In this document: piece after piece, positions 5,186 to 63,067 of the stretch
Layout: the number at the start of each line of letters is the position of its first letter
Position numbering within the stretch: position 1 is the first letter of the stretch
DNA from: a virus
Direction: 5' to 3' (one strand)
IMG/VR virus record: IMGVR_UViG_3300050120_000169
Location: 16,088 to 80,087 of that record
DNA length: 64,000 nt
The notes under the pieces: generated by a model
Database searches by the model: none
The model's input: only the letters and a program-made list of their open reading frames with translations
What the model was told of the DNA's origin: nothing
Position numbers and translations under genes: made by a program

Positions 5186-5343
5186 ACTGGGTGGTAGAAG
5201 ACGGGTATAGGCAGTTTTTTGGTCAGTCAGACTACGAATTTGAATTCACGTCCGCACAGCATTACAGGAACCGGCACCTTTTGGCGGCGATGAGGCCTCG
5301 GCGGTCCAGATGAAATAGCGCAATTGATTGCGGAGCGTGAATC

Positions 5344-7323
5344 GTGGCAGATAAACCAATCCTCAAGATTCCTGTGGACACCCAGGAGTGGGATCAGTTC
5401 GTAGATAAGTTCAATGCCTACCAAAAGGTGTTGGAAACCCAGGGCGAGCAGTGGGCTGACACGAACAAAGGTGTCAAGGAAGTCTCGAAATCCTTCGATC
5501 AAGTAGAAGGGTCGTTCGACAAGTTGGTTAAGGCCGCAGTAAATCCCGCGTTCGCTGATAAGAGTACCGGCACCTTTGCACGCTTTGAGAAAAGCTCGCA
5601 GAAGACTGCTGGGTTCTGGAAAGCCACCGAGCGCTCGCTCGAAAAAACCAGTAAGTATTTCGAAACCTTCGTGCGTTCGGGCATCAAGTGGGAAGGACTC
5701 GCCAAGGGCGGCGGCTTGATCGGTGGGGTGCTAGGTATTGGTGGTGCCATATTGGGCGCTACTGAAAAGGCCTCGAATGACTTTGCTGGTCAAAATAAGC
5801 TGAATCGCTCTCTTGGATTAAAGCCAGGGGAGCAACAGGCGTTCACCAACGCGTTTGGTCCTGCGGGCGCTGATGATGCACTGCTCGCCAAGATGGCAGC
5901 GGCTAAGAACGACCCTAACCAGTGGCACGGGTTGTTGGCGGCTGGTATCAATCAGCAGGAAATCCTAAGTAAGAACCCTGAGCAGCTTGCCGCCGAGTTT
6001 ATGGAAAAGGCGGGGGATCGCTTTAACAAGCTGGGTCCGAATGGCGGCGCTTGGGCGAATTCCACAGGTGTGTCAGAGTTCCTGGACCCTAATCAGCTTC
6101 GGCTTGCTGGTTCGTATAACCACGGCCAGTATCAGGGCTTCCAAGGGCAATACGAGCAAGACGTACCGAAGTTTGCCGCCCAGCAGTCTGTGCTGGATGA
6201 AGCTACCAAGGCCAAACAGGATTTCGATAAGGCGTGGACTCAGCTTGATTTGGCGTTTGACAAGGCGGCGATGAAACTCACGCCGGATGTGGTCAAGCTG
6301 GTAGACGAGTTCGCAGATATGGTGAGTGCGTTTGCTGATTCGAAAGAATTCGCTACGGATGTCAAGGATTTCAAGGAAGACATCCACACTATGGGTGTGG
6401 CCGCCAAGTGGGTAGCTGATCATTTAAATCACCTATTCGGGCTAGACAAGCCGGGTGCCGATAAGAAGACTCACGTAGACCCACAGGGGTGGGGTGGGAA
6501 GCTGTTGTCGTTTGGTAAGTACACCTGGGATGCCATAACTGGGAATCAGTTCACGCCACCTAAATACGATTACGGTGGTGATGACGACACTTCAGATGCG
6601 AATGGTGGCGCACCGAACGGTAGCGCGGGCTATGAAGACAAGATGCTCGACGCGATTAAGATGAACGAGTCGAGCGGTGTGAATGGCAAGACGAACCCTG
6701 ACACGGGCGCGGCTGGCCTGTATGGCATCATGCCCGAAAACTCTACGAAAGCCGGTATCGACCCGATGGATCCGGTGGCTAGTCGCGGATTGGCTAAAAA
6801 GATTTATGACAGTTTCCTCACCAAGTACCACGGTGACAGTGCAAAGGCTCTGGCCGCTTATGACGGCTTCGGCGGCTTGGATAAAGACATTGCCAAGTAC
6901 GGCGATCAGTGGCGCAGCCATATTGACGAATATCAAAGTACAGGTGAGACCATTAAGTATCTGAAGCGCATCGAAAAGCAGGGGCTTAATATTGGCCCCG
7001 GGACTAATGACGCCGATACCAAACCCAGCAAGCTCGACACCACGCCGATTGATGGTATGGATGTGCAACCGTACACGCCAGAAGAAGAGAAGGCGAAAGA
7101 TCAGAGTGATAAGCAGTATGTGAAGGACCAGATGAAGGGCAACCGTAATATGTTTGGGGTATTTCAAGACCTGTTCACCCCTGGTGCTGGGAATAAGTAC
7201 CTACCCCCGGACAATCAGTCCAAGGCTACGTCTGGTCAGCAAGCGCCCTATAACATCAATGTCTCGGTCAGCGCTCCCCCTGGCACTAACACGGCTGTAA
7301 CGGCTGGGGGGCTGGCACAGTGA
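5344..7323 (+). CDS. tape measure protein with C-terminal lytic transglycosylase (SLT) domain
   Basis: Helical Ala/Lys-rich N-terminus; SLT-like motifs MNESSG, GAAGLYGIMP and ALAAYDG. Confidence 0.8.
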   Translation: MADKPILKIPVDTQEWDQFVDKFNAYQKVLETQGEQWADTNKGVKEVSKSFDQVEGSFDKLVKAAVNPAFADKSTGTFARFEKSSQKTAGFWKATERSLEKTSKYFETFVRSGIKWEGLAKGGGLIGGVLGIGGAILGATEKASNDFAGQNKLNRSLGLKPGEQQAFTNAFGPAGADDALLAKMAAAKNDPNQWHGLLAAGINQQEILSKNPEQLAAEFMEKAGDRFNKLGPNGGAWANSTGVSEFLDPNQLRLAGSYNHGQYQGFQGQYEQDVPKFAAQQSVLDEATKAKQDFDKAWTQLDLAFDKAAMKLTPDVVKLVDEFADMVSAFADSKEFATDVKDFKEDIHTMGVAAKWVADHLNHLFGLDKPGADKKTHVDPQGWGGKLLSFGKYTWDAITGNQFTPPKYDYGGDDDTSDANGGAPNGSAGYEDKMLDAIKMNESSGVNGKTNPDTGAAGLYGIMPENSTKAGIDPMDPVASRGLAKKIYDSFLTKYHGDSAKALAAYDGFGGLDKDIAKYGDQWRSHIDEYQSTGETIKYLKRIEKQGLNIGPGTNDADTKPSKLDTTPIDGMDVQPYTPEEEKAKDQSDKQYVKDQMKGNRNMFGVFQDLFTPGAGNKYLPPDNQSKATSGQQAPYNINVSVSAPPGTNTAVTAGGLAQ

Positions 7324-41135: not shown

Positions 41136-41163
41136 TTGACAAATGGGGCGCACGCGTTATAAT
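41136..41163 (+). promoter_or_regulatory. sigma70-like promoter
   Basis: TTGACA-N16-TATAAT, 8 bp after a palindrome copy. Confidence 0.8.
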
Positions 41164-41206
41164 CAATTCATAAGTTTTAATGAAACATACACAGACGGAG
41201 TATCAC

Positions 41207-42022
41207 ATGACCGACGAAGTAATGACAGACGCAGAAGAACAGCAACCCCTCGAAAAAGTTGACGTAGGGGTGAAATCCAAAGGCAAGGCCACGGGTAACA
41301 CCATCGCAGACGTGGCGGCCAAGGTCGAAGGACTGACCAAAACCAAAGCCCGCAATCGTGCCGACGAACTGGCTGAAAACATCGAAGCCAATTACTTCGA
41401 ACTGGGCGGCGTGCTGAAGGTGATCATGGATAACGGGTGGTTCGAAGGCTATGACAGCTTCCAAACCTTCGTGTTTGAACGCTATGGTTTCCAGAAGCGC
41501 AAGGCCGAGTACCTGATGGGTCTGTATGACCATCTGGTGACCAAGCAAATCCCGTGGGAAAAAGTCGCACATCTGGGTTGGACTAAGGTTGCAATCCTGG
41601 CCTCTGTACTGACGCTCGAAAACCTTGACGAATGGGTGGCACGAGCCGAAGCATCGACGGTGCTGCAATTGACGGCTATGATCAAGGCCAAACCAGAAAG
41701 CGGCGGCGAGTCCACCACCAGTGACGAGGTGGTTACGCTCAAGTACAAGTTTCACAAGGATCAGGCTGAAACGATCCAAACCGGGCTTGCCAAGGCCAAG
41801 GGCGATTTCCAGACCGAGTATGATACGGTCGCAATGGAAAACGTGTTTGCTGGCTATCTGGCAGGGCAATTCGGCGCGGCACCTTCAGCAGGGGGCGACC
41901 TCAAGGCGATCATGAAGGACGCTGGGTGGGAAGCCGTCTTGGGAGCTTTCGATGAACTGTTCCCCGAAATCAATCTGGCAGTAACGCTACCCGGTACGGA
42001 CGCCGAGCAAGCAGCGGCGTAA
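41207..42022 (+). CDS. putative DNA-binding protein (DUF3102-like N-terminal region)
   Basis: FELGGVL...SFQTFV...GFQKRKAEYLM...LGWTK. Confidence 0.5.
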   Translation: MTDEVMTDAEEQQPLEKVDVGVKSKGKATGNTIADVAAKVEGLTKTKARNRADELAENIEANYFELGGVLKVIMDNGWFEGYDSFQTFVFERYGFQKRKAEYLMGLYDHLVTKQIPWEKVAHLGWTKVAILASVLTLENLDEWVARAEASTVLQLTAMIKAKPESGGESTTSDEVVTLKYKFHKDQAETIQTGLAKAKGDFQTEYDTVAMENVFAGYLAGQFGAAPSAGGDLKAIMKDAGWEAVLGAFDELFPEINLAVTLPGTDAEQAAA

Positions 42023-42031
42023 CGCGTCTCC

Positions 42032-42104
42032 AGCACTGCTTCATTCCCCATGGGGCAGTGCTTTTCTAGCGGGAAGGCTTTTTAACCCGGCCTTCCCCTT
42101 TTTT
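42032..42104 (+). terminator. tandem intrinsic terminators
   Basis: AGCACTGC.../...GCAGTGCT+TTT and GGGAAGGC/GCCTTCCC+T-tract. Confidence 0.65.
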
Positions 42105-42627
42105 ACCTCTAAAGGAGTAGATGCCGTGTCGGTAACCATTATCCGGCCCGTTTCATCGCCCAAAACTCCGCCCGTTGCAGATCCTGCTGTACCCCACGAG
42201 TACAATATTCTTGATGCCCTTGCTGAATTGCATTCGCATAAAGGTACGCTTATGCTCGTACACCGGAGTTCACCAGAGGCTTATCAGGTGCTGGCGTACG
42301 ACAAAGACACCGGACGGGTTAAGTTGAAAGGCCCACACGGGCAATTGCTGCACCCTGTTGTGACGGCGCGTGAAGCTGCGCTATACACCCCGTTGTGGAG
42401 GTAGAACGTGAACAAAGAGCAAGTACTTCAGGAGCTAGTGGGTAAGCTGCGTGAGCTTGACCTTGATGACGGAGTGGTTGGCATCATTGCCGTCAAAGGC
42501 CGCAACGAAACCACGACCGTGCAGGCATTCAGCACGGCTCATAACAGTTTGATGGCGATTGACTACGCCCAGATCGTGCTCGATATAGCGTCGGCTATCA
42601 AACACCGAGTTCGGTCCATCGTCTAAT

Positions 42628-43092
42628 ATGCTAAGCAAAGAACAAGCAGCCAAATATATGGTACTCGCATGGCTGAAGGATTGGTCCGTGCGGCTGTACC
42701 TGGGCACAATTTACCAGACGAACATTCCAGAAGATCCAAAGCAAATCCATAAGGATTACCCTTGGATGCCAGTGTTGGAAAGTTTGTATTTCCATGGCCG
42801 AGGTCGTAAGTATTGCCGTACCTTTATTGCAATGACTTACCCAGATCTGAATAATGCCCTATGCGACGCGGCGGATAATAAGGCGCTGTTGGCTTTGGCT
42901 CCGCGCATCTTGGGCCTGAATAACAAGAATATCCAACTGCAAACGATGTTGCGGAAACCAGATTATGCTGAATGTAAGCGTAGTCAGCTTGACTTTCAGG
43001 CAAATCGGATGATGTCGGACAGCAAGCGGGAAGAACGAAAAAATGCCCTTCGTAGTAACTGGGGAACCGTTAAAGGGAAATGTAACTCATGA
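42628..43092 (+). CDS. hypothetical protein
   Basis: 154 aa; coupled to the deacetylase gene. Confidence 0.55.
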   Translation: MLSKEQAAKYMVLAWLKDWSVRLYLGTIYQTNIPEDPKQIHKDYPWMPVLESLYFHGRGRKYCRTFIAMTYPDLNNALCDAADNKALLALAPRILGLNNKNIQLQTMLRKPDYAECKRSQLDFQANRMMSDSKREERKNALRSNWGTVKGKCNS

Positions 43093-43763
43093 AAACCCTT
43101 ATTGTGTCTTGCCACCCTGATGACGAAGCGATTAGTTGCGGGGGGTTGATTCAGAACCGCTTACGGGACGGCCACAGGGTATTTGTGTTGGCGATGTGTG
43201 GCCGGTATTACCAGTACCCAGATCCCGATAAGATGAAAGAGCTACGTCAGGCCCAGCACGCTGAGCTACAGGCTAGTTTGAATGTCCTGGGTAAGAATTA
43301 TCTGGACCAGATAGCCTACGATTTTTGTGATTACTCCAATGGCGAACCCACCAAGGAGGGGTATCACAAGTGGCTGGACGTGATTGAAGACCACCTCGTA
43401 CGGGGGTACGATGAAGTGGTTATTCCAAATCCCTACGATAACCATCAAGACCACCGGCATTTGCACGAGTGCTGTAAAATCGCCCTGCGCTCGTACAACC
43501 TGGGCGCGGTTAAGCGGATCCTGATGTGGCACGCCCTAGACGGTAGCTATCAGGAACGGTCAACATGGTTCGAACCTATGACCCTCGGCCAGCTTGAAAA
43601 TAAGAAGAACGCCCTGTTGTGTTACCGCACTGAAGTACGGCCCCTGCCACACCCTAGGGCACTGGATAACCTTGATGCTCACGCACGAGTAACCGGTAGT
43701 CAGGCAGGGTTGCTGTACGCCGAGCCTTTTACCGTCTATATGATTCGTGGAGAATTAGAATGA
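43089..43763 (+). CDS. PIG-L/LmbE-family N-acetylhexosamine deacetylase
   Basis: HPDDEAISCGG and HQDH motifs; K..AL.CY..E; AEPF. Confidence 0.85.
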   Translation: MKTLIVSCHPDDEAISCGGLIQNRLRDGHRVFVLAMCGRYYQYPDPDKMKELRQAQHAELQASLNVLGKNYLDQIAYDFCDYSNGEPTKEGYHKWLDVIEDHLVRGYDEVVIPNPYDNHQDHRHLHECCKIALRSYNLGAVKRILMWHALDGSYQERSTWFEPMTLGQLENKKNALLCYRTEVRPLPHPRALDNLDAHARVTGSQAGLLYAEPFTVYMIRGELE

Positions 43764-44452
43764 AAATCGAACAAATTGATGTGAGTTTGGCGTCGGCTCA
43801 GGCATCGTCAAATTTCTTTAACGCGTTGTCGAAAGTGTACGATCTGTCGAATATGGAGGTGCTCGATGCCTTCGCCCGTAATGGGCAACTGACGGTTAGC
43901 CATTATGCCCACTGGGTAAAGGCCGTAGACTGTTGGGAGTTTTGCGATGAGCATCGGGAGGCGCTGCAATCAATTGCGGGTGTGCGTGAGGTGGTAATCG
44001 GCTGTTCGTATGACTTGTCCGATGCCGAACGTATCATGGAAGTGAGCAAGTACGACATGGTGGTAATTGATGCCCCACAAAGCTTCCATAACAGTAATCA
44101 CGGTGGTCCGATGTGTGGGCATTTGGATTTTCTGACGGACTACACCGAACACCTGTTGAAAGACCGGGCACTGGTTATGTTGTACGTCAACAAGGTGCCT
44201 TACGATCCGGCGAAGGAAGGACACCACGGGCTAGACTCGTACGAGAACTTCGATTTTGATATGTGGATGAAGCGCCGATTAGAGTTTTACGGCTGGGTGG
44301 ACATCAATGAGCAGGTTGCCTTACAGGCCTACGAGGATGTTTTTCACCGGATGGGCCGCAAGATCAAGTCGGTTTTCATGCACCCCCTGCCGGATAATGT
44401 TCCCGGCAAACCGCCTGCATTCTATATGGTGCTCGAAACGGTCAAGGTATAG
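43760..44452 (+). CDS. Rossmann-fold, SAM-dependent methyltransferase-like protein
   Basis: VLDAFARNG, VDCWE and YDMVVIDAP strand pattern. Confidence 0.5.
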   Translation: MKIEQIDVSLASAQASSNFFNALSKVYDLSNMEVLDAFARNGQLTVSHYAHWVKAVDCWEFCDEHREALQSIAGVREVVIGCSYDLSDAERIMEVSKYDMVVIDAPQSFHNSNHGGPMCGHLDFLTDYTEHLLKDRALVMLYVNKVPYDPAKEGHHGLDSYENFDFDMWMKRRLEFYGWVDINEQVALQAYEDVFHRMGRKIKSVFMHPLPDNVPGKPPAFYMVLETVKV

Positions 44453-44454
44453 AC

Positions 44455-45885
44455 ATGAAAATTCTTGTGGATCCGGTCTACACCCAGCGTGTTCGCATTT
44501 GCTCCGGCAGCTATCTTGCGTGGCAGATAGTCGAGGAAATGAGCAAGCGCCGCGAGGATGTATTTTTCTATATGATCCTGCCCGAAGAAAAAATGGAGCA
44601 GGCGGACTGGGATTGGATCAACAGTAGGCCCTACCGCGACCGAGTTACGCTGCTAGACATGTACACCAATCCGGTGGATCGGTTGAGTGAGTTGTACATG
44701 CTGCGCGATGGCTTGCATAAAATCTTGCACCCGCTTAACCGTAATACCTGGGATATCGATATTGTGGTCAGTGGCCGGATCCCGGTGTTGAAACATATGA
44801 TGATCCACAGTAGTAGACCGGGCGGTAAGCTACGTAGTGCCAGGGCGTTCTTTGGCACTGACAACATGCCCTGCCTGCCTGGACGGGACACAGTTCCGTG
44901 GCATGAGCACGCGTACGCCGACACGATTATGTCCTATGCTATGTCGGACGGAATCTTGATCAGTGGTATGTGGATGAAGAAGCTGATCGCGCACACGGCC
45001 CGTGAAGTATTGTCACCAGCTTGGCAGAAACGTGCGTTGGCAAACGTGTACGGCGCGAACCTGATCAAGCTGGAGCGGCTCAAGATGGGACGAGATTATG
45101 TTCCCGGTAAGGATTTCAATATCGGCTTTACCGGGCGCATTACCGGCACTCGGAATTTTGAGGGGGTGGCTGAGTTATTCCGTAAGCAATTCAGTTTCCC
45201 GCTTGGGCCAAACAAGGCCTGCCTTAAATTCAGTATCAGTACGAACAGTCAGTGTGTTGGGGCGGCTGACGCGGGGGAGATCGATTTTATCGACTATCAG
45301 ATGAATGACCGGGCGGCCTTTTACACATTTTTGGAGACCCAGCATCTGGTGGTCAACTTGAGTTCTACCGAGGACTTTTCGATTACCACGCACGAGACGT
45401 TGCGGCATGGCGTGCCGATGATTGTGTATGATCGGCCCTGGACTGAATTTTTAGGCCCAGACTACCCGTTCCGGGTAAAGGGTGAAACCGAGGCCTATGC
45501 ATTGATTAACGCGTTTGTGGCCGATTATCCGAAGATGTACAAGCTATTCTCGGATTGGGAAAGCACTTGGTGGAAGAACTATGTGGAAAGTCCTGAAACC
45601 AACGTGACTACCAGCGAAAAGTTGATTCAACTGATCAATGATTTCGAAATCAAGCGGGCCGAGGCATTCCTTAAGCAGGGGGCTATGGCACGGGAGCGGC
45701 TGCAATCAATTGCGGAAACCGAACTGGATTTGACCGAGATAGCCTTTGAAAGCATCCCCAAAGGCGACCGGGTAACATCGCTGGCGCTGGGGCGTGTACC
45801 TAATACCTTGGTGTGGAAAGTCATTGCATACGAACTTGGTTATACTGATACAGCTAAAACCGGCATTATGGTAAGGAAGACCTAA
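44455..45885 (+). CDS. GT-B glycosyltransferase (GT4-like)
   Basis: MKILV start, IGFTGR, SSTEDFSITTHETLRHGVP (EX7E motif). Confidence 0.7.
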   Translation: MKILVDPVYTQRVRICSGSYLAWQIVEEMSKRREDVFFYMILPEEKMEQADWDWINSRPYRDRVTLLDMYTNPVDRLSELYMLRDGLHKILHPLNRNTWDIDIVVSGRIPVLKHMMIHSSRPGGKLRSARAFFGTDNMPCLPGRDTVPWHEHAYADTIMSYAMSDGILISGMWMKKLIAHTAREVLSPAWQKRALANVYGANLIKLERLKMGRDYVPGKDFNIGFTGRITGTRNFEGVAELFRKQFSFPLGPNKACLKFSISTNSQCVGAADAGEIDFIDYQMNDRAAFYTFLETQHLVVNLSSTEDFSITTHETLRHGVPMIVYDRPWTEFLGPDYPFRVKGETEAYALINAFVADYPKMYKLFSDWESTWWKNYVESPETNVTTSEKLIQLINDFEIKRAEAFLKQGAMARERLQSIAETELDLTEIAFESIPKGDRVTSLALGRVPNTLVWKVIAYELGYTDTAKTGIMVRKT

Positions 45886-46737
45886 ATGGATGCGCTGGAA
45901 AAGACCAAAGCCCTAGGCCGTGTTTTTCTGCCGGTGGAAGCGCTTGAGCCAAATAAAGATAACCCAAACACGATGTCGGACGCAGAATTTAATATGTTGT
46001 CCGATAACATCGAGAAGACTGGGATTACCGATCCAATTTTTGTTCGGCTTATTTCGCCAGGACAGTACCGTATTGTCGGTGGACACCACCGCTGGGAAGT
46101 GGCAAAGCTCCTGGGGTTTGTTGAAGTCCCATGCACTGTGATCGATGATCCCGAGTTCGATGATGATGCAGAAAAGTATCAAATGGTGCGTATGAACGTG
46201 ATTCGAGGTCGCATGACCCCGGATAAGTTCCTTAAGTTGTACAACAGTCTCAATAAGAAGCATGGGGCTGAAATCATGGCCGAGGCCTTCGGTTTTGTTG
46301 ACGAAGAACAGTTCAAGAAGCTCACCAAGCAGATGAGCGCTACCTTACCACCGGAACTCCAAGGGGATTTTGAGAAGGCGGCCAAAGAAATCAAGACTAT
46401 CGACGGCCTCTCTAAACTACTTAACGGGATGTTCAGTAAATATGGTAATACTCTCGACTATAACTTTATGTTGCTAGATTATGGCGGGAGAGATAGTGTG
46501 TGGATTCGTATGGCAGCTTCTGAAAAGAAAAAGCTGGTGTCCTTAGGGTATAAATGTGTAGATGGGTCGGTTAGTTTGGATTCTGTGTTGAATGGGTTGA
46601 TTGACTTTTCTTTATCAGACAAAGGTAGCCAGATATTGGCTCAATTGATAAAAGAAGGGAAGAAAGTTACACTTTCGGATGGGATTGAATTACCCACTCT
46701 GGAGAATTTAGATGAGCACCCTAAAGGGCACTATTAG
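45886..46737 (+). CDS. ParB/Srx N-terminal domain protein
   Basis: LEPNKDNPN, GITDPIFV and IVGGHHRW motifs. Confidence 0.8.
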   Translation: MDALEKTKALGRVFLPVEALEPNKDNPNTMSDAEFNMLSDNIEKTGITDPIFVRLISPGQYRIVGGHHRWEVAKLLGFVEVPCTVIDDPEFDDDAEKYQMVRMNVIRGRMTPDKFLKLYNSLNKKHGAEIMAEAFGFVDEEQFKKLTKQMSATLPPELQGDFEKAAKEIKTIDGLSKLLNGMFSKYGNTLDYNFMLLDYGGRDSVWIRMAASEKKKLVSLGYKCVDGSVSLDSVLNGLIDFSLSDKGSQILAQLIKEGKKVTLSDGIELPTLENLDEHPKGHY

Positions 46738-47233
46738 AAAAGCTGGGAAGAAAGTAAGGGATTGGTTAGGTGATATTAAAGCTGTGCAATTGATTGCGGA
46801 AGGGTGCGGTGAATGTATGCCCTATACTGGTCGAGTAGATAAAAACGGGTATGGTAGATGCCCCTGGGAAGGGGTTGGAAATACTTTAACGCATCGGTTA
46901 GCCTATGCAGTGGCTCATGACTTATCACTAACAGATATCGAGGGTGTAGTGGTTCGACACACTTGTGATAACCCTCCGTGTTGTAACCCTAATCATTTAG
47001 TTGTCGGGACACACGGGGATAATTGCAAAGATAAAATTATTCGCGGAAGACTTCCGGTTGGAGAAGACGCAGGTCCGTCTAAATTGACCGAAGCCCAAGT
47101 TAGAGAAATTAAAACTAGATTATTGGGCGGAGAACGTGGCAAAGTGTTAGCAAAAGAGTTTGGCGTCCACGTGATGACGATTAGTGATATCAAGCGTGGG
47201 GCCACATGGAGGCATGTAAATGTCCAAGTTTAA
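46712..47233 (+). mobile_element. HNH homing endonuclease
   Basis: GYG...THRLAY...VRHTCDNPPCCNPNHL..GT...N plus an HTH. Confidence 0.85.
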
Positions 47234-47702
47234 GCGTATCGAAGAACTGCCTGCCACAGTGCTATTGGATGTGCGGGCGGGTATATACGAGCCGATAATC
47301 CTGGCCCAGTACTTGCAAAAGCAGGGGTATTTTACTGACGTAGCCGAGGCTACCTTGACCCAATTAGTTGGGGCTTATCGCAAAAGTTTGAAGATCCCCG
47401 AGGGGACTTCCGAAGACTCGGTGCCTGACGAGTTCAACCCCCTGGCAGAAATCCTGGCAGTAGCCAAACAGCAGAAAGAACGCGTCCGGCTGGCAGTGTC
47501 TAAAGAAAAAGAAATCAATATGCCGCTCGACGCCACGAACAAGGTGATTCAAGAGTACCAGCAGACATTAGCGCTCATGCAGAAGATGCAGATCGAACGT
47601 GATTTGGCAGATACTAAGGTAAAACTACCAGCGGGATCCAATAATGTGACGGCTCGTATCAAAGATATGATGCGCTGGGCGAACACGCAAGACCGAGAGT
47701 AA
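47220..47702 (+). CDS. helical protein, possibly terminase small subunit-like
   Basis: HTH-like N-terminus and coiled coil; adjacent to ParB (weak evidence). Confidence 0.3.
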   Translation: MSKFKRIEELPATVLLDVRAGIYEPIILAQYLQKQGYFTDVAEATLTQLVGAYRKSLKIPEGTSEDSVPDEFNPLAEILAVAKQQKERVRLAVSKEKEINMPLDATNKVIQEYQQTLALMQKMQIERDLADTKVKLPAGSNNVTARIKDMMRWANTQDRE

Positions 47703-47707
47703 CGGGT

Positions 47708-48325
47708 ATGAAAATTATTGCTGAGAGGCATAAGGACGGACACCGGCAGTGGTTGTGTGTCTGCTTGTGTGGTAAAGAGGGGTGGTTCAAGGCCTCCCCC
47801 GGCACTGCTGGGCCACCAGAAACTTGTAGATGCAACAAGACAGTAGTGGTAAATCCCAAGAAGGTGGGTGCCCCCAACTTCCGCCATGGAAAATCGACCA
47901 CCAGAGTCCATGTGATGTGGACTACCATGAAGCAGCGGTGCCTAAATACTCGATCTACGATCTATGCGGAATACGGTGGTAGAGGCATCAAGATTTGTGA
48001 GCGCTGGCTGTCCTTTGATAATTTTTATGCCGATATGGGGGATCCGCCAGAAGGCATGATGTTAGGGCTTTACCCTAACCCCGATGGGAATTACGAGCCG
48101 GGTAATTGCGCCTGGGTTACGCGTGCAGAGAATAAAAGAAAAGCCCATAAGTACACTATCGATGGTGTATCTAAGACACTTAAGGAGTGGGCTAAAGCAA
48201 CGGGCTTGCCGTACAGTACGTTGTACAACAGGTTGGTGATCAACAAGATGGATCCGATAAAGGCCGTTACAAAAAATCGAGCAACGGTAGAAACTAAAAC
48301 TGGTGTATCTCATAGGTGCCTATAA
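47708..48325 (+). mobile_element. HNH homing endonuclease
   Basis: WLCVCLCG, MKQRC, YGGRGIKICERW and GNYEPGNCAW motifs. Confidence 0.8.
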
Positions 48326-54221: not shown

Positions 54222-54257
54222 TCGTACATGGAAACCCCCGCAATGGAGTGCATCGAA

Positions 54258-55286
54258 ATGACCGAATCCTTATCACTTTTTGGGCAAAATATTCCGGTCG
54301 ATATTCTTCGGGCATACCGCAATAAGTGGCCGGAAATGGCCGATGAGAAATTTTGGGATGCGGCCTGCTCGGCTCTGGAACTTTACGCACCCCCACCTAA
54401 ATCCCTGACGATTAAAAATCCAGAAAGAAAATGGGAACTGGTTTCCGCCTATCAAAAGACTGTACGGCGCGGTGACTTGCCCCTGGCCTTACGATTGGTC
54501 AGCGCAATGTGTAGTTTGCCGGGGGAACTCCCTTACTTTTGGCGGCGCATATGCACAACCGCTGCTGAGGATATAGGCCCAGGAGACGACGGTGTAATGA
54601 ATCTGGTCATGGCTTGCTCGGAAATTTACACACCGAAAAAGACTGCCGAATGGCAATACCCGATTCTCTGCTTTATCACGGAAATGATGTGCATGGCCGA
54701 ACGATCACGGGCCTATTGTGCCATGGCGATTATTGACGGTCAGATTAAGGCGGGAGTGATGCCCCAGGGGCTGACCGATGACGAAAAGAAGTTGGTCTCG
54801 GCAATTCGGAAATGCAATGATGCTACGGGATGGGCAATTACGAACGCATGGCGCGGCGAGGGTATGCTCAAATTTCAATTGATCGAGTACCCTCTGCACT
54901 TGGAATCTAACGGGTACACAGCACCAGAACCGATGATGATCAAGGGCCTACCTAATTACGCCTACGATATGCATACTAGAGTAGGGAAATCGGTCTGTGC
55001 GAAACTTACGGGCTACGCGGTATTAAAAGATTTCTTCGTCAAAAACCCTACGCTGGAAAATAAAGCGGTTGCGGTGGGATGGGCACTATTCTTTGAGGAA
55101 GGCGGTAAAATTGCCGGGGAACTGATCAACGAAACCCTAACGGGCCTGGAAGCAAAATTTATTGCCGCTAAATTCGGATGGAAACTTGAATCGTGGTTGG
55201 CATTGCGCACTATAATTGCAAAATTGCTGGCTGATGGGTCAGTGAATGAACAGCGGGTTAAGGTAGCAAATTTGCAGGGGTACTGA
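54258..55286 (+). CDS. protein resembling the helical C-terminal region of RarA/MgsA, without the ATPase domain
   Basis: LVSAYQKTVRRGD, WRRI...AAEDIG and YAYDMHT motifs; no Walker A. Confidence 0.5.
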   Translation: MTESLSLFGQNIPVDILRAYRNKWPEMADEKFWDAACSALELYAPPPKSLTIKNPERKWELVSAYQKTVRRGDLPLALRLVSAMCSLPGELPYFWRRICTTAAEDIGPGDDGVMNLVMACSEIYTPKKTAEWQYPILCFITEMMCMAERSRAYCAMAIIDGQIKAGVMPQGLTDDEKKLVSAIRKCNDATGWAITNAWRGEGMLKFQLIEYPLHLESNGYTAPEPMMIKGLPNYAYDMHTRVGKSVCAKLTGYAVLKDFFVKNPTLENKAVAVGWALFFEEGGKIAGELINETLTGLEAKFIAAKFGWKLESWLALRTIIAKLLADGSVNEQRVKVANLQGY

Positions 55287-55530: not shown

Positions 55531-55890
55531 ATGAAGGATGACATTCTAGCAACTCGGTGTGACAGGGCATTGCAGAAGCTGGCGAAGTGGCGAACTCTAC
55601 TCACCGGCTGGCAACTGGGAACCCGGCCCAAGGGCGACCCAGAAGGCGACGCAGTGCGGGATCAACGCGAGACCCTGTTGTTGATGAGGGTAGAGGTCAA
55701 TACCTTGGCCCACCTACTTCTCAGCAAGAAGGTGTTCACCCAGCAGGAATTTCAGCAGACGCTGATTACCGAATGCGAGGCGATGCAAAAAATGTTGGAG
55801 GCTCGCTTCCCGGGGGTGGTGGCTGAAGATTATGGATTGCGTATGGACATGCAAAAGGCCGCCGAGACTATGAAGAATTGGAAGCCGTAG
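55531..55890 (+). CDS. hypothetical protein
   Basis: GGAG RBS overlapping a palindrome copy. Confidence 0.6.
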   Translation: MKDDILATRCDRALQKLAKWRTLLTGWQLGTRPKGDPEGDAVRDQRETLLLMRVEVNTLAHLLLSKKVFTQQEFQQTLITECEAMQKMLEARFPGVVAEDYGLRMDMQKAAETMKNWKP

Positions 55891-56390
55891 TGCTCATTCA
55901 AAGCCAATTGAAGGAAGTGCTAGATTACCACCCTGAAACTGGTTTATTTGTGTGGAAGGTGCGGGCAAGTAATAGAGTTGGAGTTGGGGTAGTTGCTGGG
56001 ACTACGAACAAAGATGGGTATATTGTAATTGGGTACAAAGGATGCCGCTATATGGCGCACCTATTAGCCTACTTGTGGATGGAAGGAGTATATCTGATTG
56101 GAGAGGTTGATCATAAAGACACTAACCCATCAAATAACAGGTGGGTGAATCTACGTCCAGCTACTCGTACCGAAAATGCTAGGAATACAAACACCCCCAA
56201 GTCGAATAGTTCTGGTGCAAAAGGGGTAACATGGCATAGGGCTAGTAAGAAGTGGCGGGCTTTTATAAAAGTTAATGGTAAGCAGATACATCTGGGTTTA
56301 TTTAGTAGCTTTGATGAAGCTGTAGCCAAACGTGCCAAGGCAACAGTTGAATTACACGGGGAATTTTCAAACTATGAGGTGAAACCATGA
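55890..56390 (+). mobile_element. HNH-AP2 homing endonuclease
   Basis: YHPETG, VDHKD.NPSNNRWVNLR; AP2 domain SGAKGV...KWRA.I...IHLG.F. Confidence 0.85.
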
Positions 56391-58084: not shown

Positions 58085-58171
58085 GGGCTTTATGGCATGG
58101 GTGCTGGGTAAGAGAAGCTTCCTAGGTAAGCCTCTTACTTAACAGCGGTTCAAATCCGCTGGGGTCCACCA
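58085..58171 (+). ncRNA. tmRNA-TLD-like / Ala-acceptor tRNA-like RNA
   Basis: GGGCTTT/GGGGTCC-A-CCA with G3-U70; T arm AGCGG-TTCAAAT-CCGCT; no D stem; long central helix. Confidence 0.55.
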
Positions 58172-58176
58172 GTTTT

Positions 58177-58264
58177 GGAAGTGTGGCTGAGTGGGTTAAG
58201 GCAGCGGTCTTGAAAACCGTCGAGTCGAAAGGCTCCGTGGGTTCGAATCCTACCACTTCCGCCA
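58177..58264 (+). tRNA. tRNA-Ser(TGA)
   Basis: Complete cloverleaf, long variable arm, G73, encoded CCA. Confidence 0.95.
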
Positions 58265-58415
58265 GATGTACGTGTGGATAGGGTGGTCCCCGTGCCCCCG
58301 AAAGGCACGTAAGCAATGAGGGAGTAAAACGTGAGACGACCTGTTCCCTCCTTCGGTTGGTACGAATCTCGACTAGCTATCGGGAATATTTCAACCGGGG
58401 TCGGTCGGCCAGTAC

Positions 58416-58498
58416 ATGCGGGTGGCTGAGTGGACTAAGGCACTGGCCTGCAAAGCCAGCGAACTTCGGTTCCGTGGGTTCGAATCCCACCCCGCATT
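58416..58498 (+). tRNA. tRNA with GCA (Cys) anticodon and long variable arm
   Basis: ATGCGGG/CCCGCAT, CTGGC-CTGCAAA-GCCAG, GAAC-TTCG-GTTC variable arm, U73, no encoded CCA. Confidence 0.85.
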
Positions 58499-58501
58499 AA
58501 C

Positions 58502-58577
58502 GGGCGTGTAGCGCAATTGGTAGAGCACTTGATTCTGAGTCAAGAGGTTCTAGGTTCGAGACCTAGCGCGCCTGCCA
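58502..58577 (+). tRNA. tRNA-Gln(CTG)
   Basis: Cloverleaf; CTTGA-TTCTGAG-TCAAG anticodon arm; G73-CCA. Confidence 0.85.
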
Positions 58578-59881: not shown

Positions 59882-60155
59882 TGGGCTTAGTCCATATAAG
59901 GAGAACTCCAATGAACCAGCACCAACCGAGAAAGCACAAACCCCACTGCCGTTACTGCGTGAAGGAAGCTGTGGATCAACACGATGATGGATCACATGTG
60001 TGTGAGGATCATCAGAAACACACGCGGTGGGGGCAGGTAGCGGTCGCCATGTTGGACCGGCCCTACGATGAATGCCAGATAGACGAACCCAAGTAGCAGT
60101 CTCTAAACAGACCGTCCGCAATCAATTGCGGCGGCCTTTTTTATGTGGGGTAAAA

Positions 60156-61889
60156 ATGACCGGTGCCGTACGACTCATAGCATTAACCAAACCCGTGATA
60201 GACGAATGTATAACAGCCGAGGATCTAGTGGCCTTCTGCGCTCGTGTTAGCAACCCAGCGAATCAGGCCAACCACGACACAGCAGGTAAGTTGTTGAAAT
60301 ATCTGGCGAAGAACAAGCACTGGTCCCCATTTGAAATGGTTAATGTGGTACTGGAAATCACGACGACCCGGGACATTGCCCGTCAGATCTTGCGACACCG
60401 ATCTTTCAGTTTTCAGGAATTTTGTGTTACTGGGGACACTCGGATTACCTTGGAATTGCCCAACGGAGTGGCAAAGGGGAAACGGGCTGCATACACCAGA
60501 ACTATTGAACAGTTATACCGCCTTCAACAAGAATCCCCTAAACGTTTGCCCAAGTGTGTCCGAGTTTTTGATGAGAACACTAGGGCTTTTGTCACGGCCC
60601 CGATCAAAGAAGTATTCCAGACGGGAGTTAAGCCTGTTTTTCGTATCACGATGGCGAACGGAAAAACCATTGATTGCACTAAGGAGCATAAATTCCTTAC
60701 TCAAGAGGGTTTTATACCTATTGAAGACGCAATTGGTCTTAAGGTGCTTGGCACAAAGGCTGTAATGACCAACCCCAATACTTTTCTAGCCTGTAATGGA
60801 GTTACTGCACACCAGGATCGTGATTGGTTAGTGGCCTCCAAGAGTCGCTCTATTCAGGCAGGTTCTGGACTACAAGGCATAGCCAAAGAGGCGGGGGTAA
60901 CAACCCATACCATACGTAAGTGGTTGAAACACCATCAAGTACAGTTCACCAAGAAAGAGGTGTCTTCTTATACACCCGCTTGGAATAGAGGGGTCACAGG
61001 GTACAGCACGGGTAAGCGTAGTCTTACGACTATTCAAAAAATGAGAGCTTCGGCAAAGAAGGGGGCGGATTCCAATTTGTGGCGCGGGGGAGTTAGCAGG
61101 TCGGAAAGACTACGTATTGCTGACTGGTGCACGGCTCACAGGGCAGAATTTTTAATCAAGGCTGGGTATAAGTGCCAACGCTGTCGTAGTAGCTTGAAAC
61201 TAGAACTCCACCATATGCAGACAGTTGCTGCTCGTCCTGATCTGGCTTATGACAAAGAGAACATAGAAGTTCTGTGTAACGTTTGTCATGACAAACACCA
61301 TGCTTTGAACGGGGACGCCAAAAAATGGCGTGAAAAACATAAAGGCCACACACTAACAGTGGAGTGGTGCAAAGTAAGTAAAGTGGAATTTCTAGGTGAT
61401 CACATGACTTACGACCTAGAAGTTCAGCATGACTCCCATAACTATGTGGGGAATGGTCTGGTTGTGCATAACAGTCAACGCTACGCGGCTGTAGTGGACT
61501 TCGCGGAGCCACGCGAGGCGCGGATGCAGGATGCCAAGAACAGACAGAACAGTACCCCGGCTGATGACGCGTTGCTGGCTGGTTGGTGGGAGCAGGCACA
61601 AGCAACGCATATTACGAACACAGAGAAGCTATACAAGACGGCGCTCGATGCAGGTATTGCCAAGGAAGTGGCCCGGTCGGTGTTGCCAGAGGGTCTTACG
61701 ACCAGCCGCCTATATATGTCGGGGTCGCTCAGGAGTTGGATTCACTACGTGCTACTGCGCACGGGCAATGGCACCCAGTTAGAACACCGGCATATCGCGC
61801 TGCGCTGTCAGGGGGTGCTGGTTGAGCAGTTCCCTGCACTTTCAGTACTTTTCGAGACAGAACATGACCAAGCTGACAGTACTCATTGA
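60156..61889 (+). CDS. thyX: flavin-dependent thymidylate synthase with an intein
   Basis: ARVS, HWSPFE, RQILRHRSFSFQEF|SQRY, AKEVARSVLP and TQLEH motifs. Confidence 0.92.
   Translation: MTGAVRLIALTKPVIDECITAEDLVAFCARVSNPANQANHDTAGKLLKYLAKNKHWSPFEMVNVVLEITTTRDIARQILRHRSFSFQEFCVTGDTRITLELPNGVAKGKRAAYTRTIEQLYRLQQESPKRLPKCVRVFDENTRAFVTAPIKEVFQTGVKPVFRITMANGKTIDCTKEHKFLTQEGFIPIEDAIGLKVLGTKAVMTNPNTFLACNGVTAHQDRDWLVASKSRSIQAGSGLQGIAKEAGVTTHTIRKWLKHHQVQFTKKEVSSYTPAWNRGVTGYSTGKRSLTTIQKMRASAKKGADSNLWRGGVSRSERLRIADWCTAHRAEFLIKAGYKCQRCRSSLKLELHHMQTVAARPDLAYDKENIEVLCNVCHDKHHALNGDAKKWREKHKGHTLTVEWCKVSKVEFLGDHMTYDLEVQHDSHNYVGNGLVVHNSQRYAAVVDFAEPREARMQDAKNRQNSTPADDALLAGWWEQAQATHITNTEKLYKTALDAGIAKEVARSVLPEGLTTSRLYMSGSLRSWIHYVLLRTGNGTQLEHRHIALRCQGVLVEQFPALSVLFETEHDQADSTH
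60423..61472 (+). mobile_element. intein (350 aa) carrying an HNH endonuclease domain
   Basis: Starts CVTGDT, block B CTKEHKFLT, ends YDLEV...NYVGNGLVVHN before Ser; internal CQRC...LELHH...N...LCNVCHDKHH. Confidence 0.9.
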
Positions 61890-62484
61890 TGGGCAGTGTG
61901 CGGTAATCACGCTTGAGGCCGACGAGGTTGAGATAAATTCGCCAGAAGGTGTGACGTTCAAGCTACCGGAGCAAGGCACAGCAGGTTGGCCGGGTACGCC
62001 TGGAAACCCGCCTGGGCATGGCAAAAGTCCACCCGTAGTGCCCAATTGCTTGGTGACCGGCACCACAGGGCATCTATGCGACCCGGAAGGTGTCAACCAC
62101 CCCCAGCACTACAACAGTCACCCCTGTGGGCTGGAAGTGATACAAGTCACGAACTACCTAGGGTCATTCAACCTAGGATGTGTGTTCAAGTATGTGGTTC
62201 GTACTGACTCGAAAGATGGGTTGAAGGATCTTAAGAAAGCTCTGTGGTATGCCGACGAAGAAACGAGAAATCGAGAATATTGGGATGCTCGATCAACGTT
62301 GAAGCTTAACGTTCATCGCTGGACTGTCTTGCGTAATAACCTTGAGCAGTTTATCAAATTCGAGCCGGATGCCCATGTACGCAACGTGCTGGGTGCGCTA
62401 TTTAAAATGTATTTTGAAGATGGCACACCGGAAGTGCTGCGAAAAGCCGTGGGGTTCCTGCATCAAGAGCGAGGTGGGAAATGA
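61864..62484 (+). CDS. DUF3310-like protein
   Basis: VNHPQHYN...FNLG..KY..R...KDGLKDLKKALWY. Confidence 0.7.
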   Translation: MTKLTVLIDGQCAVITLEADEVEINSPEGVTFKLPEQGTAGWPGTPGNPPGHGKSPPVVPNCLVTGTTGHLCDPEGVNHPQHYNSHPCGLEVIQVTNYLGSFNLGCVFKYVVRTDSKDGLKDLKKALWYADEETRNREYWDARSTLKLNVHRWTVLRNNLEQFIKFEPDAHVRNVLGALFKMYFEDGTPEVLRKAVGFLHQERGGK

Positions 62485-62584: not shown

Positions 62585-63067
62585 ATGGCTGATTTTATTG
62601 AACGCGTACTAGAATTTAATCGCGCTGCGGGGCGTCCCGAGACTTTCGACACGCATCTGGTGTCCGCGCATATCGGCTATCAGATGGAAGAAATGTCCGA
62701 GAAGTTGTTGCTCGGGGTGATGGCTGGCGCACAGACGGCTGAGTCCCAGCTTCACGCCTGGGCAGTCAAGCACATGGCGAACGAGTTGCACTTGATGGGC
62801 CTGAAATTCAAAAATGGGTTCTACGATGAGCTTGTCGGCCACGCGAACAAGAAGGAACTGCTCGATGCCGATATCGACCTCGCGGTCTTTACGATGGGCA
62901 GTATGATGGTCCAGGGCGCTGATGTCCTGGGGGCCACCAACGAGGTGTGCAGCGCAAACGAACGAAAGAAGTTCGAAGACGGTACTTATCACAAATCTAC
63001 GGAGGGTAAAATAATTAAACCGATTGGGTGGGTTCCACCCGACATGACGCCTTATGTTGGGAAATAA
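62585..63067 (+). CDS. MazG-like NTP pyrophosphohydrolase (PRA-PH-like)
   Basis: EEMSE, ELLDADID, EV..AN..K and GKIIKP.GW.PPD motifs. Confidence 0.75.
   Translation: MADFIERVLEFNRAAGRPETFDTHLVSAHIGYQMEEMSEKLLLGVMAGAQTAESQLHAWAVKHMANELHLMGLKFKNGFYDELVGHANKKELLDADIDLAVFTMGSMMVQGADVLGATNEVCSANERKKFEDGTYHKSTEGKIIKPIGWVPPDMTPYVGK

Follow-up and report, generated by a model that had tools for sequence, protein, structure and literature searches.

What does a phage do with a sugar deacetylase, a methyltransferase-like protein, a glycosyltransferase and a ParB homologue that are encoded side by side? The genes in question lie in a window of 64,000 nucleotides (positions 16,088 to 80,087 of the virus record IMGVR_UViG_3300050120_000169), part of an 80-kb phage contig from a peat metagenome. 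A preliminary description had proposed that they form an operon for DNA hypermodification, in which a transferred sugar is deacetylated and perhaps modified further. Both the chemistry of such a module and the identity of its acceptor have to be considered.

Organization of the locus

The module consists of four genes on the plus strand (43089-46737), whose starts and stops overlap or abut, so that they are translationally coupled; at two of the junctions the overlap is a 4-nt ATGA. These genes and their surroundings are as follows.

42126 to 42626, plus strand: two small open reading frames (92 and 72 amino acids) at the head of a tightly packed block
42628 to 43092, plus strand: orphan basic protein of 154 amino acids, pI 9.6
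43089 to 43763, plus strand: PIG-L/LmbE-family zinc deacetylase (PF02585; HPDDE and HQDH motifs)
43760 to 44452, plus strand: class I SAM-methyltransferase-fold protein, 230 amino acids (AlphaFold2, Foldseek, VIA-align)
44455 to 45885, plus strand: GT4-like GT-B glycosyltransferase, 476 amino acids (structural model, Foldseek, EX7E motif)
45886 to 46737, plus strand: ParB-CTPase/Srx-fold protein with a GxxR motif (Pfam ParB_N)
46712 to 47233, plus strand: HNH endonuclease gene (PHROG HNH families)
47220 to 47702, plus strand: helical protein of 160 amino acids, weakly homologous to Summit gp112
54228 to 55286, plus strand: AAA+ ATPase with weak MgsA_C similarity and homologues in relatives

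All four of the closely coupled genes that had been described are therefore present. The range originally assigned to the operon, 42628-47702, stands for these genes and fails at its ends, where it takes in an orphan reading frame first and the HNH and 160-residue helical proteins last, none of which figured in the proposed system. The 154-residue orphan has no Pfam or PHROG match and no homologue in nine related phage genomes, and is probably not part of the conserved system. The HNH gene, which separates parB from the next gene, is probably a mobile insertion; its product is 84% identical to its counterpart in G001, the closest relative, a value above that of the flanking genes. The 160-residue protein is a candidate small terminase, since it corresponds to the conserved gene that lies between parB and terL in siphophage relatives.

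A terminator-like hairpin (42060-42078) is found upstream of the two small reading frames, and there is no strong sigma-70-like site from the head of the block until 48929. Neither small reading frame has a Pfam match; the 92-residue one is kept in G001, and the 72-residue one is an orphan. In several relatives, the gene directly upstream of the deacetylase encodes a homologue of the AAA+ ATPase, which in this phage is located 8 kb downstream. The sugar island as a whole sits in the replication/recombination module, adjoining the packaging genes and far from the structural genes.

The sugar enzymes

The core enzyme of the module is the glycosyltransferase. Its AlphaFold2 model (pLDDT 88.2, pTM 0.86) is a GT-B fold with two Rossmann domains, as had been predicted for a protein carrying an EX7E motif. 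Foldseek aligns it with the GT4 enzymes PglA, BshA, MshA, SenB, and LmbT at E values of about 1e-10, with a probability of 1.00 and TM scores of 0.5-0.68 for the first four. The EX7E glutamates (E306 and E314) and the diphosphate-binding G227-R228 are invariant among 29 homologues. Sequence profiles are less informative: the NCBIfam search gave no matches, and the only Pfam match is PF20706 at 17.3 bits, below the cut-off of 26. Because no profile, Glycos_transf_1 and GT4-conflict included, scores above its cut-off, the enzyme is named GT4-like by fold and motif and not as a member of a profile family. The N-terminal (acceptor) domain is basic (pI 8.85), while about 60 additional residues at the C-terminus form a winged-helix-like domain, with weak structural matches (TM 0.4-0.5), that is not basic (pI 6.4). 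The family comprises 446 cluster representatives, and a pattern scan of 185,579 species genomes returned a single match, which makes the family look phage-restricted. A fold search among viral proteins placed giant-virus group 1 glycosyltransferases among the structural neighbours.

The deacetylase matches Pfam PIG-L (PF02585) with an E value of 5e-15 and 56.6 bits (cut-off 28.2). Its HPDDE (residues 9-13) and HQDH (residues 119-122) motifs are intact and align with those of diacetylchitobiose deacetylase, and its assignment as a PIG-L/LmbE enzyme is thus confirmed. The best NCBIfam match is the BshB1 equivalog TIGR04001, at 32.9 bits against a cut-off of 182.5.

The 230-residue protein has no Pfam match. 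Its AlphaFold2 model (pLDDT 92.9) nevertheless has a class I SAM-methyltransferase fold, in agreement with the initial suggestion, and finds Foldseek matches at E values of about 1e-9. VIA-align ranks TYW2 at the top (Z 16.9, rmsd 2.9, 170 residues aligned), followed by RlmI-like, Trm5, and RsmD-like enzymes, with 464 chains at Z of at least 8. The alignment shows atypical motifs, LDAFARNGQLT and D-T/A-P-Q: the canonical GxGxG of motif I reads FARNG, and D-T/A-P-Q takes the place of the (D/N)PP(Y/F) of motif IV. E60, the acidic residue that follows strand 2, is retained. Given these motifs, SAM use and methyl transfer are no more than plausible. Among the fully covered loci of the relatives the methyltransferase occurs only where there is also a deacetylase, and in this phage it is present in the absence of any aminotransferase; this distribution fits an action on the de-acetylated 2-amine. 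The predicted function of the protein is the transfer of an alkyl group, probably methyl, to the nitrogen that the deacetylase exposes.

The glycosyltransferase-ParB pair

How does a ParB homologue come to be associated with sugar enzymes? The protein matches Pfam ParB_N (PF02195) with an E value of 7e-12 and 45.6 bits (cut-off 26.3), carries the GxxR motif as GHHR within VGGHHRWEVA, and aligns with the N-terminal nucleotide-binding domains of Noc and ParB in PDB sequence matches. No HTH family was found by Pfam, and an Atlas search with residues 105-283, for which the query model is itself of low confidence, gave no recognised fold or family.

Relatives of this ParB are held by 22 phage records. 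In each of the eight representatives inspected, which cover all lineages among these records, a distant member of the glycosyltransferase family is encoded directly upstream of ParB. The family HMM detects the ParB-adjacent enzymes of Kitkat (6e-20 and 9e-14), RcDurkin (3e-14), JP1 (4e-8), and VH2_2019 (4e-6), and the pair is found in at least seven phage lineages, with hosts from Arthrobacter to Vibrio. The Arthrobacter phage Kitkat has only ParB in common with the genome studied here (blastp, 1e-6), so its pairing is not explained by genome synteny. The glycosyltransferase and ParB are thus a conserved pair across unrelated phages, which is a new finding. It also supports the earlier view that the ParB/Srx protein belongs with the cluster, as does the precedent of a phage ParB homologue that activates a DNA-modifying enzyme (PMC13229309).

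The sugar-tailoring genes that precede the pair differ by lineage. Deacetylase homologues head the island in DLP5, Summit, RcZahn, KarBoss, and G001, and relatives carry genes for a 4,6-dehydratase, a PseC/LegC-like aminotransferase, and a GNAT protein, that is, enzymes of 4-amino-4,6-dideoxy sugars. The deacetylase and methyltransferase of the present phage are the smallest tailoring set among the loci seen.

Is there a base-priming enzyme?

The window had been noted to contain no visible hydroxymethylase or TET/JBP gene, and this holds for the whole contig and ten relatives. Six-frame profile searches, which could miss very divergent priming enzymes, detected neither the ThyA family (PF00303) nor TET/JBP (PF12851) in these 11 pair-bearing genomes, the contig itself being probably incomplete; the 2OG-oxygenase families PF13640 and PF13532 were absent from 10 genomes. 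With all of these families absent, the known handle for O-glycosylation is missing. The window does contain a thyX gene with an intein (60072-61889). The only DNA methyltransferase found nearby is of the Dam type, and this genome has no TGT-family enzyme. PolA and TerL were not detected in the contig, which is therefore probably missing about 20 kb.

Comparison with known systems

The module has elements in common with several systems. The T4 alpha- and beta-glucosyltransferases also have a GT-B fold, transfer a hexose from a UDP-sugar, and protect the genome. However, they use UDP-glucose on 5hmC that is incorporated before replication, and have neither a ParB partner nor a deacetylation step. 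They are not among the top 50 PDB matches of the glycosyltransferase, and in the viral fold search a protein with the annotation DNA alpha-glucosyltransferase comes no higher than rank 39. In the DpdA/DpdB 7-deazaguanine system a ParB-like NTPase and a DNA-modifying transferase act together; the chemistry is different and the TGT-family enzyme is absent here. The early steps of bacillithiol and mycothiol synthesis offer the same pairing of enzymes, where a GT4 protein (BshA or MshA) transfers GlcNAc and a PIG-L protein (BshB or MshB) de-N-acetylates the glycoside, but here the equivalog scores are far below threshold, the pathway context is absent, and the genes are set apart by their restriction to phages and their ParB partner.

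Similarity is also seen with the phage clusters for DNA sugar hypermodification (Pyle et al., bioRxiv 10.1101/2023.12.21.572611 / Cell Rep 2024; Burke et al., PNAS 2021). Shared features are a GT-B fold resembling BshA, MshA, and Pgl, neighbouring ParB-like, terminase, endonuclease, and sugar-tailoring genes, and a phage-restricted distribution with lineage-specific glycan variety. By contrast, the starting point of those clusters is 5hmC, supplied by a C5-methyltransferase together with 5mYOX or else by an enzyme of the ThyA type. The genome studied here and ten relatives have no detectable enzyme of these kinds, and the preprint nowhere uses the words deacetylase, aminotransferase, or amino sugar. 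Another parallel is provided by the ParB-dependent phage thymine dioxygenases (O'Toole et al., PNAS 2026, PMC13229309), where a ParB-CTPase-fold protein without an obvious DNA-binding domain is encoded beside a DNA-modification enzyme, with glycosyltransferase, terminase, AAA, and endonuclease genes nearby. The partner there is a dioxygenase; here it is a glycosyltransferase, there is no TET/JBP domain, and the dependence on ParB is putative.

A proposed pathway and its alternatives

What, then, is modified? We give an even chance to post-replicative glycosylation of the phage DNA with a HexNAc, followed by deacetylation and N-alkylation. The glycosyltransferase would use a nucleotide sugar, most likely UDP-GlcNAc, as the donor of an N-acetylhexosamine that it attaches to DNA. 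The ParB-like protein may help it to engage double-stranded DNA; the analogy is with the phage thymine dioxygenase, which is activated by a ParB. The PIG-L deacetylase would then strip the acetyl group to leave a cationic glucosamine, and the methyltransferase-fold enzyme would use SAM to alkylate, and probably methylate, the freed amine. With so bulky a cationic adduct, the genome would be protected against the nucleases of the host. The enzymology of transfer, deacetylation, and further modification that was first put forward agrees with the folds, motifs, and co-occurrence in relatives, whereas the GlcNAc donor and the DNA acceptor, like the order of the steps and the role of ParB, we infer.

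The case for DNA is built on gene context, published analogues, and restriction resistance. Phage GT-B enzymes that resemble T4 beta-GT, BshA, MshA, and PglH glycosylate DNA, and their genes have ParB-like, terminase, and epimerase neighbours (bioRxiv 10.1101/2023.12.21.572611). On dsDNA, a ParB homologue from a phage serves as the activator of a DNA dioxygenase, and the genes most often found next to such dioxygenases encode glycosyltransferases, ParBs, terminases, and endonucleases (PMC13229309). DNA of the cluster carrier DLP3 resists 15 of 15 restriction enzymes (PMC7326821), and that of DLP5, another carrier, is also restriction-resistant (PMC7326821, PMC8228603), a non-specific trait that is common to many unrelated S. 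maltophilia phages from the same laboratory (PMC8228603). Points against a DNA acceptor include the lack of a base-priming enzyme in the searches above, the weak structural matches and non-basic character of the winged-helix-like domain, and the dideoxy-sugar enzymes of relatives, which are also typical of protein or capsid glycosylation.

The main rival to DNA glycosylation is an unlikely one, that the amino sugar is attached to a phage protein in the virion or elsewhere (capsid, tail, portal, or packaging), the tailoring genes diversify a surface glycan, and ParB is a mere neighbour. GT4-type enzymes often act on proteins, lipids, and small molecules (SdgB and PglA are among the Foldseek matches), and the giant-virus neighbours, like the failure to find a base-priming enzyme in the searches described above, fit this explanation. 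The 4,6-dehydratase, PseC/LegC-like aminotransferase, and GNAT proteins of the relatives are typical of bacillosamine- or viosamine-type protein glycans. However, the island is remote from the structural genes, the acceptor domain is basic, DLP3 DNA is restriction-resistant, and the pairing with ParB persists even in an otherwise unrelated phage. Might the host envelope be the target instead, with LPS/O-antigen, capsule, or pilus glycan modified to block superinfection? It is well known that prophages can encode glycosyltransferases which change surface glycans. LPS modification was also proposed by the authors of the DLP3 study from an RfaB-type domain match (PMC7326821). This is very improbable for an island that lacks a flippase or membrane component (Pfam, PHROG), for a glycosyltransferase gene that, with one match in the scan of species genomes, does not resemble a lysogenic-conversion cassette, and for carriers that include a phage of a Gram-positive host, Arthrobacter. 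A further alternative, in which the glycosyltransferase and deacetylase make a small GlcN-conjugated metabolite in the manner of the two opening reactions of the bacillithiol or mycothiol pathway, would account for BshA and MshA among the best structural matches and for BshB1 as the top NCBIfam match of the deacetylase. Even so, it is hardly to be expected given the sub-threshold BshB1 score, the absence of an NCBIfam match for the glycosyltransferase, and the addition in relatives of 4-amino-4,6-dideoxy-sugar enzymes, which are ill-suited to thiol cofactors. To our knowledge, Proteobacteria, the hosts of most cultured carriers, do not use either thiol.

The role of ParB is a separate issue, and the following alternative fits either acceptor. 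ParB might stand outside the sugar pathway and serve in packaging or pac-site handling with the candidate small terminase and TerL, or in phagemid partition, its adjacency being positional. The gene order parB, helical protein, terL is retained in no fewer than 12 loci, the glycosyltransferase is less well conserved than ParB, and DLP5 is kept as a phagemid, a state that its authors tied to ParB domains. We consider this role rather doubtful, because ParB adjoins the glycosyltransferase here and in G001 although TerL is not adjacent, and because Kitkat, whose pair is at the right genome end, has no annotated terminase among the five genes downstream of ParB. The classical ParB HTH is moreover not recognised by the Pfam and low-confidence Atlas searches, and ParB activation of a DNA-modifying enzyme has a precedent (PMC13229309).

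Returning to DNA as the acceptor, a bolder proposal can be made tentatively. ParB and the GT4-like enzyme may form a self-sufficient two-gene system for DNA glycosylation that dispenses with ThyA-type hydroxymethylases and TET/JBP enzymes and places the sugar on a canonical base, on the backbone, or on a handle from an unrecognised enzyme; in this phage the product would be an N-alkylated glucosamine. If so, we know of no earlier case in which deacetylation on the DNA itself yields an amino-sugar modification.

Significance

In the literature cited here, every phage DNA glycosylation that has been characterised begins with an oxidised pyrimidine (5hmC, 5hmU, or 5-hydroxycytosine), which is supplied by an enzyme of the ThyA or TET/JBP type. 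Nuclease-resistant DNA is one practical context in which a cationic amino-sugar adduct would be of interest; understanding how phages escape restriction and CRISPR is another. The existence of cultured carriers of the cluster or the pair (DLP3, DLP5, Summit, RcZahn, KarBoss, and Kitkat) makes the acceptor question directly testable. If the target is DNA, a new attachment chemistry is indicated, and ParB-fold proteins would gain a second client enzyme.

The phage and its contig

The window is taken from one viral contig of 80,087 bp, of which it covers bases 16088-80087; the contig is contained in peat and watershed metagenome runs, with no RNA run listed among them. A tailed phage is indicated by genes for tail sheath, baseplate, portal and major head protein, and a replication and recombination module runs in one direction (DnaB-like helicase, primase, a second helicase, UvsX/RecA, exonuclease, Dam methyltransferase and RuvC). 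Despite a CheckV completeness estimate of 100%, the contig is probably a fragment, about 20 kb short, because neither PolA nor Terminase_6N (the large terminase, TerL) has a match anywhere in the 80,087 bp, whereas the closest relative, the 99.5-kb genome G001, has PolA at the contig end. Absences in this genome alone are therefore weak evidence.

Four tRNA genes (Phe, Ser, Cys, Gln) are clustered at 58085-58577 of the window. At locus L001 (genome coordinates), a patatin-like phospholipase gene (5308-6108; Pfam E 1e-31) lies upstream of the portal gene, beside the head genes. The head-morphogenesis gene is followed at L001:9294-12281 by a gene for a 995-aa protein with ADP-ribosyltransferase-like (Alt-like) and NUDIX-like regions, which may be an injected internal protein.

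The four-gene block

The four genes of the preliminary description are all present as stated and are translationally coupled:

43089-43763, + strand, PIG-L/LmbE deacetylase
43760-44452, + strand, methyltransferase-fold protein (230 aa)
44455-45885, + strand, glycosyltransferase (476 aa)
45886-46737, + strand, ParB protein

The range first assigned to the operon also takes in an orphan 154-aa ORF, an HNH endonuclease gene and a 160-aa helical protein (47220-47702). Free-standing HNH endonuclease genes occur between conserved genes at 46712-47233, 47708-48325 and 55878-56390. The copy at 46712-47233, between ParB and the 160-aa gene, shows 84% identity to its counterpart in G001, more than the genes on either side, which is what a mobile homing endonuclease gene would be expected to show. 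A self-contained unit (41136-42078) lies directly upstream of the sugar block; in it a sigma-70 consensus promoter (41136-41163, 12/12 perfect) precedes a 280-aa DUF3102-like gene ended by a terminator-like hairpin (42060-42078).

The deacetylase belongs clearly to the PIG-L/LmbE family, its HPDDE and HQDH motifs being intact. The methyltransferase-like fold proposed for the 230-aa protein was borne out by a Foldseek check: the protein, which has no Pfam or NCBIfam match, is modelled with high confidence as a class I SAM-methyltransferase fold. The closest structural matches are TYW2, RlmI-like, Trm5 and RsmD-like proteins (Z 16.9-14.1), with generic methyltransferases close behind. Motif I reads FARNG where GxGxG is usual, and D-T/A-P-Q stands at motif IV in place of (D/N)PP(Y/F); the acidic residue after strand 2 is retained. 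With these motifs, SAM-dependent alkyl transfer is no more than plausible.

The glycosyltransferase is modelled as GT-B, in agreement with the original assignment, and its structural matches are the GT4 enzymes PglA, BshA, MshA, SenB and LmbT. E306-x7-E314 and G227-R228 are invariant; sequence-profile scores lie under every curated threshold. There is a weak match to PF20706 ('conflict-system GT4'), a family that came from work on bacterial cell-death systems (PMC8195603) and not on phage DNA. The final ~60 residues are weakly winged-helix-like (TM 0.4-0.5), and a search for longer fused forms of the enzyme found none, which is weak evidence. The last protein of the block is likewise what it was taken for: it carries ParB_N, with GHHR as the GxxR motif, and aligns to the nucleotide-binding domains of Noc and ParB. 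No HTH was recognised in it by Pfam and fold searches.

The glycosyltransferase family is small: of 1.84 billion cluster representatives, 446 match it at E <= 0.001. It also looks phage-restricted: when 185,579 species genomes were scanned by pattern, the single match lay on a short contig (4.4 kb) from a metagenome-assembled genome. Scanning viral contigs with a single sequence found nothing; an alignment-based scan did yield matches. Cultured carriers are the Stenotrophomonas phages DLP5, DLP3 and Summit, Rhodobacter phage RcZahn, Vibrio phage KarBoss, and the Rhizobium phages RHph_Y1_11 and TM16.

The glycosyltransferase-ParB pair

Is the adjacency of glycosyltransferase and ParB peculiar to this phage? 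Relatives of the ParB were found by tblastn in 22 phage records, and eight that represent all lineages of the 22 were inspected (Summit, RcZahn, KarBoss, RHph_Y1_11, VH2_2019, Kitkat, RcDurkin and JP1). A glycosyltransferase of ~480-530 aa lies directly upstream of ParB in all eight, with at most one or two small ORFs between; in RcZahn, ParB is gene 1 and the glycosyltransferase is at the record's end. The remaining records are close relatives of the inspected eight, and in two of them the ParB match overlaps a gene annotated as a glycosyltransferase. The ParB-paired enzymes of Kitkat (two genes, 6e-20 and 9e-14), RcDurkin (3e-14), JP1 (4e-8) and VH2_2019 (4e-6) are recognised as distant members of the family by an HMM made from the aligned glycosyltransferases. 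When the glycosyltransferase was used in a viral structural search, the Kitkat and BeatusComedenti enzymes ranked second and third.

In a comparison of ten genomes, the proteobacterial phages have much of the replication module in common, so that among these the adjacency might reflect inherited synteny. With Arthrobacter phage Kitkat this genome has ParB alone in common (38% identity; blastp E < 1e-6). The recurrence of the pair in a genome otherwise unrelated argues for a functional coupling of the two proteins. Because no sugar-nucleotide-tailoring genes are annotated beside the pair in RcDurkin, JP1 and Kitkat, the pair is taken as the core and the tailoring genes as accessories. This pairing is the main new result. 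In Kitkat, a methyltransferase gene is found five genes past ParB. The gene directly upstream of the paired glycosyltransferase in RcF-cluster and JP1 phages encodes a small YAcAr/SLOG-family protein annotated 'DprA-like' (RcDurkin gene 20, L031:4816-5205, Pfam E 7e-7; JP1_003, L032:983-1399, 5e-9), and this may assist the pair as a nucleotide-binding protein.

Gene order and tailoring sets

In cultured carriers and metagenomic loci the order begins with the deacetylase, sometimes preceded by a RapZ-like P-loop protein and an AAA+ ATPase, and continues with a 4,6-dehydratase-type SDR and a PseC/LegC/DesI-type aminotransferase, both assigned on scores that are all under equivalog cut-offs. The methyltransferase-fold protein, glycosyltransferase, ParB, helical protein and TerL then follow. 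The tailoring set differs between lineages. Among cultured carriers the island is complete in DLP3, DLP5, Summit, RcZahn and KarBoss, RHph_Y1_11 has the acetylated variant, and Kitkat and RcDurkin have the glycosyltransferase without the tailoring genes.

Tailoring genes by lineage
This phage: deacetylase and methyltransferase only
G001 (closest relative): deacetylase, SDR and aminotransferase, without methyltransferase
Rhizobium phages: GNAT acetyltransferase, SDR and aminotransferase, without deacetylase or methyltransferase
Vibrio PG28-like phages: a different deacetylase, two unknown genes, another methyltransferase and a WbqC-like protein

No SDR or aminotransferase was found by tblastn in the whole contig. 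Among fully covered loci the methyltransferase is never found without the deacetylase, and in this phage no aminotransferase accompanies it; both observations are consistent with a methyltransferase whose substrate is the amine that deacetylation exposes.

Shortly downstream of TerL, pyruvate-phosphate-dikinase-like genes are annotated in RHph_Y1_11 (L005:13239-15401) and VH2_2019 (L016:14692 onward). Unannotated ORFs of ~700 aa occupy the same position in the metagenomic loci L009-L011 and L014, and no counterpart of the dikinase-like gene was identified in this contig.

The search for a priming enzyme

Which enzyme would make the acceptor base? The window had been said to lack a hydroxymethylase or TET/JBP gene, and the observation extends to relatives: six-frame HMM searches of 11 pair-carrying genomes, among them eight isolate genome records and one metagenomic genome with terminal repeats, detected no ThyA-family enzyme and no TET/JBP domain. 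A 2OG-FeII_Oxy_2 or _3 domain was found in none of ten genomes searched. The DNA methyltransferase of the adjacent region is Dam-type, not C5. If the sugar goes onto DNA, no source is visible for the usual hydroxymethyl handle.

ThyX is carried by this phage, Summit, DLP5 and RcZahn. Here, the gene for this flavin-dependent thymidylate synthase (60072-61889) is split by an intein with an HNH endonuclease domain, and genes for a DUF3310 protein (61822-62484) and a MazG-like pyrophosphohydrolase (62585-63067) follow downstream. As a hidden hydroxymethylase ThyX was rejected as a general explanation, being absent from nine of ten relatives scanned, the closest included. The gene between ParB and TerL was dismissed as a divergent dioxygenase, since its product is helical, has a coiled-coil annotation in V-YDF132 and shows no HxD motif. 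The 240-aa and 280-aa upstream proteins were also rejected as priming enzymes; both are helical and one is DUF3102-like.

A model for the pathway

Systems of this kind are already known. Phage GT-A and GT-B enzymes have been found experimentally to put diverse glycans on 5hmC in DNA; the GT-B enzymes resemble T4 beta-GT as well as BshA, MshA and PglH, and ParB-like proteins, terminases and sugar-modifying enzymes are encoded nearby (Pyle et al., bioRxiv 10.1101/2023.12.21.572611). The commonest neighbours of the ParB-dependent phage dioxygenases of O'Toole et al. are glycosyltransferases (31%), ParBs (27%), terminases (19%) and endonucleases (17%) (PMC13229309). The reading judged most likely, at about an even chance, is ParB-assisted transfer of HexNAc to phage DNA followed by de-acetylation and alkylation of the amine. 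After replication, the glycosyltransferase, helped by ParB, would place HexNAc on phage DNA; the PIG-L enzyme would then de-acetylate it and the methyltransferase-fold enzyme would alkylate the exposed amine, giving a cationic adduct that would shield the genome against host nucleases. The donor sugar, the acceptor, the order of steps and the role of ParB are given here as we infer them.

Glycosylation of a virion protein is the main rival; the sugar chemistry of the relatives and the missing priming enzyme speak for it, the genomic position of the cluster and the pairing of its glycosyltransferase with ParB speak against it, and it is considered rather improbable. Whatever the acceptor, ParB may serve packaging instead of the sugar pathway, a doubtful but somewhat stronger prospect; modification of host glycans and synthesis of a bacillithiol-like metabolite are unlikely. 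As to the DNA of carriers, DLP3 genomic DNA resisted 15 of 15 restriction enzymes (PMC7326821) and DLP5 is listed as restriction-resistant (PMC8228603). The same is listed for many unrelated S. maltophilia phages (PMC8228603), and the resistance is therefore not specific to the cluster. The papers that describe the Vibrio relatives are silent about DNA modification.

ParB-assisted modification of phage DNA would here take a form not described in the literature consulted: a priming enzyme is not detectable, the amino sugar would arise through deacetylation and N-alkylation, and the partner of ParB would be a glycosyltransferase. The cultured relatives make this model directly testable.
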